This document shows, piece after piece, positions 34,513-37,615 of a stretch of DNA of 43,730 nt (positions are counted from its first letter, which is position 1; every line of letters starts with the position of its first letter). The DNA is taken from IMG/VR virus record IMGVR_UViG_646311924_000020. The stretch is one strand, 5' to 3'. The translations under genes were made by a program, and so were the position numbers. Origin of the DNA: a virus. Taxonomy: Duplodnaviria; Heunggongvirae; Uroviricota; Caudoviricetes. The notes below the pieces were generated by a model, which ran no database searches, was not told where the DNA came from, and saw only the letters and a program-made list of their open reading frames with translations.

Positions 34513-35401
34513 CGTGTTCACCCTCACGAACTTTCAGGTAGGTATTATCGTTAAGCAGGAAATCAAATCCCTTTTTGTGCCAGATAGTTCCGCGTTGATG
34601 GTTTGGACGCTCTTCGAACATCCATCGGCAATTTTCGCCTACGTAGCTCAAATAATTTCTCCAGTCCTGCATCGTGAACCCATGCCCGTCAAGCTGGCGT
34701 GTTATCACTCCGGCTTTGCGCCAGAACGTTCGGATCTGGTTTTTACGCTTGTCATTCAGTGCGCGGATTCTTGGCGCTTCAGGAAGGATTTCGTGGTAAG
34801 CATCGACAACATCCTGACAGCTGACGGAAGGTTTTTTCTTGTCAGACTTTTTGTCTGCTGTGGCACTCTCTAATACGTCAGTATTAGAGATAATATTATT
34901 ATATTCTTTATCTGTGGTAATTTGCTGGTAATCTGCTGGTACAGTATTGCTTGCATGCATTGGTATTGCTGGCTTTGAGGTGGTAATTTGCTGGTAATCT
35001 GCTGGTACAAAATTTGACTGATAATCGTCATATTTCTCTACCGAGAAAACTGAGGATTTACCGTGTGAAACCCAGTCAATCATGCCGAGTTTTTTGAACT
35101 TTCTAAGCAGGTACTGAACGCGATCTGGTTTGAGTCCTGTTTCAAACGCCAGAGAGTTTCTACCGCCAAGTAGCTTCCCTCTGCCTACCAGAATTTCTCC
35201 TGCGTCAGTCATTACATACTCAGGCGTATGCTTTGCTTTGAGGATTAAGTGAACCCACAGATGCGCTGCTTCTGCGTCCTTGTAAAACGGCACATCCATA
35301 ATTTTACGGTGCAGCAAGGCATACCCCTTACCGCTGCTTTGATGCGGTTGTTGTAGCCTTCTGGCCTCTCTGGCTTCGGCTAGATTAGATATGTTACTCA
35401 T
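34502..35401 (-). CDS. replication initiation protein (O-like, origin-binding)
   Basis: 299 aa directly upstream of and overlapping the helicase gene; contains an internal DNA iteron array and AT-rich block, as lambda O contains its own ori. Confidence 0.65.
34865..35010. repeat. candidate replication origin: iterons plus AT-rich block inside the O-like gene
   Basis: Two identical 29 bp direct repeats TGGTAATTTGCTGGTAATCTGCTGGTACA (34915-34943 and 34981-35009), each made of CTGCTGGTA-type sub-repeats, with a degenerate copy between, adjacent to AT-rich 34871-34910. Confidence 0.6.
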
Positions 35402-35869: not shown

Positions 35870-35954
35870 TTCTTAAGATTTCCAGTAGTGAATAGTTAGT
35901 TGAAAGGTATGCGTGGAAACGCATATGGCCTTAGTTGGTCAGATATCTTGGAAC

Positions 35955-36000
35955 TCGCTTTTCAGCGACGTAGGACGAATGTCCGTTGTTACAAAGAGCG
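35955..36000 (-). promoter_or_regulatory. candidate nutR (boxA plus boxB)
   Basis: Minus strand just after cro: CGCUCUUUGUAACAACG (boxA-like), a small hairpin GGAC-AUUC-GUCC, then UCGC-UGAAAA-GCGA (GAAAA loop as in lambda boxB). Nearly the same arrangement recurs upstream of N. Confidence 0.5.
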
Positions 36001-36010
36001 GATCCGCTTA

Positions 36011-36226
36011 TTAAGCGGCTTTGTGTTCCGGCGGGAACACGTCATCAAGACTGACTTTTGCGCCTAACTTGTTTAGGCACGCAACAAGAGCACGGCATGT
36101 TTTAAGGTCTGGGAAGCGACGACCAGATTCCCAATGTCCGATAGCTCCCTGTGTGCATCCAACTGCCTTAGCAAGTGTTGTTTGAGAGATATTCAGTGAC
36201 TCTCGATATTTTCGTAGGTTGCTCAT
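36011..36226 (-). CDS. cro: Cro-like repressor (HTH_XRE)
   Basis: 71 aa from ATG 36226 (MSNLRKYRESLNISQTTLAKAVGCTQGAIGHWESGRR...), GGAGGG RBS, divergent from cI. Confidence 0.8.
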   Translation of the reverse strand: MSNLRKYRESLNISQTTLAKAVGCTQGAIGHWESGRRFPDLKTCRALVACLNKLGAKVSLDDVFPPEHKAA

Positions 36227-36252: not shown

Positions 36253-36281
36253 ATAATACGATATGTACTTTTAGAATGCAA
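36253..36281 (-). promoter_or_regulatory. candidate pR promoter (-35 TTGCAT, 17 bp spacer, -10 TATTAT)
   Basis: On minus strand upstream of cro; spacer and -10 overlap the 15-mer AGTACATATCGTATT, an operator-like motif also present at pL. Confidence 0.45.
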
Positions 36282-36343
36282 ACAAAAAATACATCTTGTG
36301 CATGGATGATTTTAGTACAGAGCGTAATAATAAGGGTATGAAA

Positions 36344-36997
36344 ATGAAATGGTATGAACTGGCTAGATCCAGAATGAAAGAGCTCGGCATAACTCAAGAG
36401 AAGTTAGCCGAAGAGCTTGGTATGACGCAGGGTGGAATTGGTCACTGGTTGCGCGGATCTCGTCATCCATCTCTTGACGAGATTGGTGTGGTGTTTAAAT
36501 ACCTTGGTATTGATAACGTCTCATTCAACCACGACGGTACATTTTCACCTGTTGGCGAATACTCATCTGCCCCCGTTAAAAAACAATATGAGTACCCTGT
36601 TTTTTCTCATGTTCAGGCCGGTATGTTCTCGCCTGAGCTTAGAACCTTTACCAAAGGTGATGCGGAGAGATGGGTCAGCACAACCAAAAAAGCCAGTGAT
36701 TGTGCGTTTTGGCTTGAAGTTGAAGGTAATTCCATGACCGCGCCAACAGGATCCAAGCCAAGCTTTCCTGACGGGATGTTAATTCTCGTTGACCCTGAGC
36801 AGGCTGTTGAGCCAGGTGATTTCTGCATAGCCAGACTTGGTGGTGACGAGTTTACCTTCAAGAAACTGATCAGGGATAGCGGTCAGGTGTTCCTACAACC
36901 ACTAAACCCGCAATATCCAATGATTCCATGCAATGATAGCTGTTCCGTAGTAGGGAAAGTTATCGCCAGCCAGTGGCCTGAAGAGACATTTAGTTAA
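36344..36997 (+). CDS. cI: CI-type prophage repressor (N-terminal HTH, C-terminal S24 LexA-like domain)
   Basis: HTH segment ([23 protein letters not shown]) and S24 motifs (GNSMTAP...FKKL); start chosen at ATG 36344 (7 nt after AAGGG); ORF-track start 36296 is a TTG. Confidence 0.85.
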
Positions 36998-37029
36998 CAG
37001 CCTCACCACTCTAAAACACACAACAATAA

Positions 37030-37057
37030 CCCGACCTTAGCGTCGGGTTTTCTTTTT
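37030..37057 (+). terminator. intrinsic terminator after cI
   Basis: Hairpin CCCGAC-CTTAGC-GTCGGG followed by TTTTCTTTTT, 33 nt after the cI stop. Confidence 0.6.
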
Positions 37058-37123
37058 CCAAAATATAAACCCATTAAATACAAAGCGTTATAAAAAACTA
37101 AACCATATTTAGAACATTTTGTA

Positions 37124-37152
37124 TTGACTCAGTAAAGTACACATCGTACTAT
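37124..37152 (+). promoter_or_regulatory. candidate pL promoter (-35 TTGACT, 17 bp spacer, -10 TACTAT) with overlapping operator-like 15-mer
   Basis: Spacer and -10 contain AGTACACATCGTACT (37136-37150), an inverted-repeat-containing 15-mer near-identical to the one at pR. Confidence 0.5.
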
Positions 37153-37198
37153 TTAGCTATCAGCAGGAAGCTGGAAGCCAAACGGAACAGACTGGCAG

Positions 37199-37244
37199 GC
37201 TCTTTAAACAACGTCGAACACTCGACTACGTGGCTGAAAAGCCA
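37199..37244 (+). promoter_or_regulatory. candidate nutL (boxA plus boxB)
   Basis: GCTCTTTAAACAACG (boxA-like), small hairpin GTCGA-ACAC-TCGAC, then TGGC-TGAAAA-GCCA (GAAAA loop); located between pL and N. Confidence 0.5.
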
Positions 37245-37342: not shown

Positions 37343-37615
37343 ATGTCCAGAAAAACAGAATTTAAAGGAACCGCAGCTTCTCGCCGTAGAGCTCGTCGTG
37401 CAAATCTGCAAAGTCAGGAGGCGATCAGCTCCGACAAGCTACACAGGCCAACCCCTTCACGAGTGGTCTTGCAATGCAAGCGCAAACCAGCAATGAGAGC
37501 AGAAGTGATAACTCTGACAACGTTGACCAGAAAATATGAAGGTTCAACTTGTCTTCCGAACGTAGCCATTTACGCGGCAGGCTACCGGAAATCAAAACAA
37601 CTGACGGCGAGATGA
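37343..37615 (+). CDS. N: N-type antitermination protein (arginine-rich motif)
   Basis: 90 aa from ATG 37343 (GGGAGG RBS): MSRKTEFKGTAASRRRARRANLQSQEA...; first gene after pL and the nut-like site. Confidence 0.7.
   Translation: MSRKTEFKGTAASRRRARRANLQSQEAISSDKLHRPTPSRVVLQCKRKPAMRAEVITLTTLTRKYEGSTCLPNVAIYAAGYRKSKQLTAR

Follow-up and report, generated by a model that had tools for sequence, protein, structure and literature searches.

Nut sites control delayed-early gene expression in a family of phages that includes the Shiga-toxin phages, and their architecture helps in the reading of prophages. The spacers of the H-19B nut sites reportedly carry dyad symmetries that are not seen in other nut sites, and Neely and Friedman are said to have named the stem-loop of this spacer the "reducer". 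Breaking one arm of the dyad reportedly inactivates the site, compensatory changes are said to restore its activity, and deletion of the dyad symmetry is said to have had little effect. The N protein of H-19B reportedly requires NusA, but not NusB, S10, or boxA. In the same phage, nutR and tR1 form an overlapping nut/rut Rho terminator, where the nutR spacer is protected by NusA and Rho and the boxB loop is protected by N (PMC3526286, in which Neely & Friedman 2000, Mol Microbiol 38:1074, is cited for the nutR site). Two further papers describe NusA as binding the nut spacer (PMC2724277; PMC4499122).

The window, which is the whole stretch of 43,730 nucleotides analyzed here, contains two sites that are very probably the nutR and nutL of a lambdoid prophage with the VT2-Sakai/H-19B type of antitermination. 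The feature is already known: VT2-Sakai carries the annotation, and the architecture had earlier been described and reportedly tested in H-19B. What is mildly new is comparative, as follows: the hairpin covaries across the whole family, the boxB has a tetraloop and is accompanied by a distinct arginine-rich motif, and a consensus boxA is found at both sites, unlike in H-19B. Beyond correct annotation, the value of the locus is small and comparative.

The two nut sites and their gene context

Open reading frames (ORFs) and Pfam hits identify the immunity region as lambdoid, with a map that is inverted relative to that of lambda. Together with promoter-like sites, they give the order cI / pR-cro-nutR-cII-O-P and pL-nutL-N along the early transcripts (Table 1). 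Both sites are on the transcribed strand, with nutR in the pR transcript directly after the cro stop codon and nutL in the pL transcript, about 45 nt after the pL-like promoter and 99 nt before the start codon of N. The interval between nutR and cII is annotated in VT2-Sakai as "putative rho dependent terminator for pR transcript".

Table 1. Positions of the nut site elements and of the neighboring genes and signals in the window
Feature	Position	Strand	Basis
nutR boxA, CGCUCUUUGUAACAA (rrn-like CUCUUU core, then AACAA)	36000-35986	minus	Inside VT2-Sakai "putative N-utilization rightward"
nutR C between boxA and hairpin	35985	minus	
nutR spacer hairpin, GGAC-AUUC-GUCC	35984-35973	minus	Identical to H-19B nutR; folds; covariation
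nutR UACG linker, spacer hairpin to boxB	35972-35969	minus	
nutR boxB, UCGCUGAAAAGCGA (5-bp stem UCGCU/AGCGA, GAAA tetraloop)	35968-35955	minus	
nutL boxA, GGCUCUUUAAACAA	37198-37211	plus	
nutL C between boxA and hairpin	37212	plus	
nutL spacer hairpin, GUCGA-ACAC-UCGAC	37213-37226	plus	
nutL UACG linker	37227-37230	plus	
nutL boxB, UGGCUGAAAAGCCA (5-bp stem UGGCU/AGCCA, GAAA tetraloop)	37231-37244	plus	
cI	36344-36997	plus	Pfam HTH_3 and Peptidase_S24
cro, 71 aa	36226-36011	minus	Pfam HTH_3; Cro in VT2-Sakai annotation
cro stop codon, UAA	36013-36011	minus	
cII	35869-35573	minus	Pfam Phage_CII
O-like and DnaB-like genes	Further along from cII	minus	ORFs/Pfam
N, 90 aa, arginine-rich motif GTAASRRRARRANLQ	37343-37615	plus	Pfam PF25694 N_peptide, E 8e-32
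pR-like promoter, TTTGCA-18-TATTAT	36253-36282	minus	VT2-Sakai counterpart is "putative major rightward promoter"
pL-like promoter, TTGACT-17-TACTAT	37124-37152	plus	VT2-Sakai counterpart is "putative major leftward promoter"
Hairpin UAUGCG-UUUCCA-CGCAUA in the nutR-cII interval, putative Rho-dependent tR1 region	35908-35925	minus	VT2-Sakai annotation and H-19B likeness

An earlier note on this DNA had proposed a three-part nutR after cro, in which a small hairpin separates boxA from boxB, and the same layout with a different hairpin before N. Direct reading of the minus strand confirms the sequences and coordinates given for nutR, and the recurring layout was read on the plus strand at 37198-37244. 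A boxA matching CGCUCUU(U)A is present as CGCUCUUUG at nutR and as GGCUCUUUA at nutL. The nutR boxA matches both the lambda boxA CGCUCUUA and the rrn boxA UGCUCUUUA (reference sequences from PMC2724277). At nutL, the boxA has one A more than the rrn boxA-spacer ugcucuuuaacaa. The spacers present dyad symmetries of the H-19B type, formed by GGAC/GUCC at nutR and GUCGA/UCGAC at nutL, and ViennaRNA folds both the spacer and the boxB hairpins in a 101-nt context of nutR and in the centroid structure of a 111-nt context of nutL. The earlier note also described a lambda-like boxB, UCGC-UGAAAA-GCGA. The boxB hairpin is indeed present, but its division into a 4-bp stem and a hexaloop fits less well than a 5-bp stem closed by U-A under a GAAA tetraloop, which gives UCGCU-GAAA-AGCGA at nutR and UGGCU-GAAA-AGCCA at nutL. 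Two relatives have GCAA, also a GNRA sequence, at the loop position. Each boxB thus parsed has a short G+C-rich stem and a GNRA-like loop, and stem position 2 shows a compensatory change from C-G at nutR to G-C at nutL. The GAAA loop differs from the boxB pentaloop GACAA of H-19B and P22.

The pattern GCTCTTT-N1-3-AACAA-N15-30-CTGAAAAGC has exactly two matches in the 43.7 kb, which are nutR and nutL, and the combined boxA-boxB pattern has none in 100 dinucleotide-preserving shuffles, in agreement with the view of the earlier note that the arrangement is unlikely to be due to chance. A loose pattern for boxA only, with 2 mismatches, was no rarer than chance, so the signal is carried by the composite of boxA and boxB, and boxA alone is not evidence. 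When a covariance model of the arrangement was run over the whole window, it scored 69.9 and 63.1 bits at the nut sites and 11.8 bits (E of 0.2) at the next best match; both nut sites are among the seeds of the model, and the result is therefore informative only in that it shows no third site. This weak match (34602-34658, plus strand) falls within the O-like replication gene, in antisense orientation to it, and is most likely due to chance. A scan of the region from 33 to 40 kb against Rfam, with E values up to 10, returned chance-level matches only, none of them to a nut family. The assignment to nutR and nutL, which the earlier note had put forward as a candidate, is supported by position, orientation, boxA, boxB, the cognate N, the recurring layout, and the VT2-Sakai annotation.

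Two other hairpins are found in this region. A 6-bp hairpin extends across the cro stop codon (36004-36018; minus-strand transcript CCGCUUAAUAAGCGG) and ends 3 nt before the nutR boxA; it was flagged as terminator-like on the plus strand in a terminator scan. Relatives with other cro alleles carry unrelated sequence ("cataagtaacc") in its place, and this hairpin is therefore part of the cro module and not of nutR. The other hairpin, located just 3' of cI (37028-37049), has 8 bp, is G+C rich, and is accompanied by T-runs on both strands. It resembles a bidirectional intrinsic terminator that probably ends the cI transcript before pL, and its VT2-Sakai counterpart is annotated as "terminator for pRM transcript". 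The cI-pL interval (36998-37123), with this terminator after cI, spans only about 125 nt, whereas in VT2-Sakai and relatives the distance from cI to pL is about 1.4 kb longer (ORFs H0093 and H0092; L001 3099-4600).

Pairing in the spacer hairpin and boxB among related phages

Related loci were gathered in three ways, as follows: via the N protein, via annotated phages, and via an exact-match search of viral contigs for UACG followed by NNGCU-GAAA-AGC. At least 10 unrelated and fully complementary stems were found between ...ACAA(C/U) and UACG. Those of 4 to 5 bp are GGAC/GUCC, GGCC/GGCC, GGACG/UGUCC, GUCGA/UCGAC, and GGUGA/UCACC, and those of 6 bp are GGUGAA/UUUACC, GAUUCA/UGAAUC, GAUUCG/UGAAUC, GAAGAU/AUCUUC, and GACAGU/ACUGUC. 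The loops are 3 to 5 nt long and have no common sequence; among close relatives at nutL, the stem is kept and the loop varies (CUC, ACUC, AUC, and GCAC).

A hand-checked alignment presented 95% paired cells, a value that is partly circular because its rows were selected by a script that requires the hairpin, and double changes at three hairpin pairs. Sites with 6-bp stems and with pentaloops were misaligned by MAFFT, and a cleaner seed with a model-based alignment was used in its place. The covariance model built from the hand-checked alignment retrieved 45 distinct sites from 97 sources. In the alignment of these sites, which was fitted to the model and therefore leans towards the modeled structure, 96% of the cells are paired, compared with 71% in shuffles and 23 to 50% with slid partners. 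Neither the observed pairing nor the observed covariation score was reached by any of 500 shuffles. Double-sided changes occur at four of the five hairpin pairs and at two of the five boxB pairs. The boxB stem is paired in 100% of the cells and covaries at positions 1 and 2, while three of its pairs, the GAAA loop, and UACG are uninformative in the many rows where the retrieval pattern fixed them.

The least circular test is provided by a set of loci defined by protein, independently of the RNA. Every locus read in which N starts with M(S/T/A)R(R/K)TxFxG carries the hairpin, UACG, and boxB upstream (about two dozen distinct N-termini, at loci with upstream DNA available). Upstream of the P22-like N of L091 and the lambda-like N of L094, boxA and boxB occur without the hairpin. 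Scanning viral contigs with N alone retrieved only N proteins that are at least 98% identical, at which the stems are invariant, and scanning genome contigs with an N alignment retrieved 16 loci, mostly with other N types.

In the 45 distinct sites the closing G-C pair of the spacer hairpin is near-invariant, and ACAAC and UACG flank nearly every hairpin. In the window, H-19B, 75/02, SF10, sal4, and the Enterobacter phage, nutL and nutR alike have the UACG linker; it was fixed in the pattern of the contig scan, but not in the sites read beside N and cro genes. The earlier note contained neither this conserved UACG and ACAAC-G...C junction nor the boxB tetraloop and the published H-19B hairpin. 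The diversity of the stems and the double changes favor pairing over sequence, and judged from this natural covariation the spacer hairpin is real, is under selection for pairing, and is a covarying element of the whole family that is tied to one family of N.

N arginine-rich motif and boxB loop type

The arginine-rich N encoded downstream of nutL belongs to PF25694, and the type of its motif tracks the type of boxB loop. This comparison was drawn from L002, L003, L084 to L086, and viral contigs (window 37343-37440). N proteins with the motif RRRxxRxx(L/V)Q, from the window, 75/02, SF10, the Enterobacter phage, and many contigs, are associated with GAAA or GCAA at nutL, and also at nutR where this was read. 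The motif RRRERLKAKALANGVLA is represented by two N proteins, those of H-19B and sal4, and is associated with GACAA at nutR; at nutL, the loop is again GACAA in H-19B and is an aberrant CGUCAAC in sal4. The sample behind this match has few members on the pentaloop side and is biased towards GAAA by the retrieval pattern. Because nutR and N are 1.3 kb apart, with cI and cro between them, the agreement of loop and motif is not accounted for by linkage alone. The one-base loop change between GAAA and GACAA, together with the change of N motif, constitutes a natural specificity pair for studies of RNA-peptide recognition.

The remainder of N is mosaic, and the N proteins of SF10 and the Enterobacter phage combine a motif of the window type with a body of about 120 aa of the H-19B type. 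In Salmonella phage 64795_sal4 (L086), the nutL, about 130 nt upstream of N, retains both UACG and the spacer hairpin. The boxB of this site, GCUCCGUCAACGAGC, combines a 4-bp stem with a GUCAA core, and the position that would close the loop is occupied by a C-C mismatch. In the nutR boxB of the same phage, UCGCU-GACAA-GGCGA, the closing pair is U-G.

Proposed role of the spacer hairpin and comparison with known phages

By analogy with lambda and H-19B, the sites would function in N-dependent antitermination with the corresponding host factors, and the hairpin would have a passive spacing role. The pR and pL transcripts would carry boxA, to be bound by NusB/S10, while boxB would be bound by the N protein of the phage itself, through its arginine-rich N-terminus. 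The resulting RNA-protein complex, with NusA and NusG, would stay on RNA polymerase and allow read-through of tR1 and later terminators. By folding, the spacer hairpin would remove 12 to 14 nt from the long spacer, which is the "reducer" role proposed for H-19B. With boxA taken as 9 nt (xGCUCUUUx), the spacer measures 23 nt at nutR and 24 nt at nutL, and closing the hairpin leaves 11 and 10 nt, respectively, of single-stranded distance between boxA and boxB, compared with 9 and 8 nt in lambda (PMC2724277). By the same definition of boxA, the P22-like site in L091 has a spacer of about 10 nt. A natural site in L209 that has the UACG linker without a hairpin separates boxA from boxB by 11 nt, and this spacing fits the reducer idea.

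The short viral contig L209 (1430-1560, plus strand) carries tandem nut-like units with two boxB loop types side by side. The first unit consists of boxA, UACG, and GCGCU-GAAAA-AGCGC, and is followed directly by a second unit consisting of boxA, GGAC-ACUC-GUCC, UACG, and UCGCU-GAAA-AGCGA. After the second unit come GGCU-GAAAA-AGCC and a boxA-like CUGUUCUUUAAUAA.

A purely passive spacer gives no obvious reason for the near invariance of the first G-C pair and of the flanking ACAAC and UACG. They would be accounted for if the hairpin were a specific binding element, whether for NusA, for Rho loading at the overlapping rut, or for the N-terminal MSRKTEFKG of N, with the ACAAC-G...C-UACG junction being recognized. 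This is a possibility that we consider rather unlikely. It agrees with the conservation of the junction, with the restriction of the hairpin to the H-19B-family N-terminus, and with the footprints of both NusA and Rho on the H-19B nutR spacer (PMC3526286). However, the stems beyond the first pair are wholly different between sites, the loops lack a consensus in both length and sequence, and for a large part of the sample UACG had been imposed by the search pattern. Deletion of the H-19B dyad, with the small effect that it reportedly had, also argues against recognition of the hairpin. More speculatively, and in our view doubtfully, the subtype that combines a short RRRxxRxx(L/V)Q motif with a GNRA tetraloop boxB may bind boxB without the extruded loop base offered by the pentaloops of lambda and P22, and the near-invariant ACAAC-G...C-UACG junction may contact NusA or the family-specific N-terminus of N, which would make the hairpin more than a passive reducer.

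Minimum-free-energy folds of the isolated nut RNAs suggest a different arrangement, in which boxA pairs with the 3' half of boxB around the spacer hairpin and both elements are masked, as in an RNA switch, until N or Nus factors bind. This fold is calculated at −11.9 kcal/mol against −11.7 for the two-hairpin fold at nutR, and at −14.9 against −12.8 kcal/mol at nutL, and at both window sites boxB stem position 2 is matched by the base that immediately precedes GCU in boxA. Such a switch is nonetheless very unlikely, as the informative position is pairable in only 11 of the 21 distinct sites with a recognizable boxA, and the alternative fold is unsupported by covariation. Moreover, GCUCUUU is absent from many nutL sites of the family, ViennaRNA predicts the two-hairpin fold in longer contexts, and co-transcriptional folding favors local hairpins. 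That the hairpin and the sites are functionless products of chance or of mere shared ancestry is hardly credible. The invariance of the stems among the closest relatives would suit this explanation and is uninformative alone, whereas the absence of the combined pattern from the shuffled windows, the pairing of ten different stems at a level that the shuffled alignments never reach, and a boxB loop that fits the N motif even at nutR, in another operon, all speak against it. The reading that we prefer remains that of nutR and nutL with a spacer hairpin under selection for pairing.

The window sites share with lambda the order of boxA, spacer, and boxB after cro and before N, a boxB in which U-A closes a 5-bp stem under a purine-rich G...A loop, and an N protein with an N-terminal arginine-rich motif. 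They differ in the spacer, which in lambda is unstructured and 8 to 9 nt long (cacauucca and aaaauuaa; PMC2724277), in the boxB loop, which in lambda is a GAAAA or GAAGA pentaloop instead of the GAAA tetraloop, and in boxA, where the window has the CUCUUU core of rrn instead of the lambda sequence.

The closest likeness is to VT2-Sakai and other Stx phages, a large set of which is 94.5% identical to a 2.4-kb region of the window. In the VT2-Sakai record (AP000422), both window sites correspond exactly in position to annotated sites, labeled as putative ("putative N-utilization rightward" and "leftward"), and the record also lists pR, pL, the operators, a putative Rho-dependent tR1, and a terminator after cI. 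From boxA to boxB, the VT2-Sakai nutR core aligns with the window without a difference, and nutL differs solely in the hairpin loop, which is ACAC in the window and CUC in VT2-Sakai. The N proteins are 99% identical. The Stx1-converting phage, Stx2 II, and the PA-series phages have the same nut sites as the VT2-Sakai type, and the exact window variants of nutL and nutR are present in many other viral contigs. Experiments on the window phage or on the VT2-Sakai N were not found in the searchable literature, nor was a paper describing this nut subtype found among full texts.

The nutR of H-19B reads CGCUAUUUUCACAAU-GGACAUUCGUCC-UACG-UCGCU-GACAA-AGCGA, with no base changed in the hairpin, linker, or boxB stem relative to the window nutR, whose spacer hairpin we take to be the "reducer" hairpin of H-19B. 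The stretch from nutR to cII, which contains the tR1 region, is also nearly identical. At nutL, H-19B has another hairpin in the same place (GAUUCG-AAUA-UGAAUC-UACG-GCGCU-GACAA-AGCGC). The N protein of the window is homologous to that of H-19B/933W, with 40% identity over the full length and the same Pfam family. Common to the window and H-19B are the N-terminus, M(S/T)R(K/R)TxFKG, and the C-terminus, CLPNVA(I/L)YAAGYRKSKQLTAR. The two proteins differ in length, with 90 aa in the window and 127 aa in H-19B, and in the arginine-rich motif, where the window has RRRARRANLQ. While boxA has the rrn-like consensus at both sites of the window, in H-19B it is CGCUAUUUU at nutR and is not recognizable at nutL. 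Given the consensus boxA at both sites, the reduced host-factor requirement of H-19B may not be shared by the window phage. The 4-nt GAAA loop, a single-base deletion relative to the 5-nt GACAA loop of the H-19B nutR, sets the window sites apart as a subtype, without removing them from the H-19B type of architecture.
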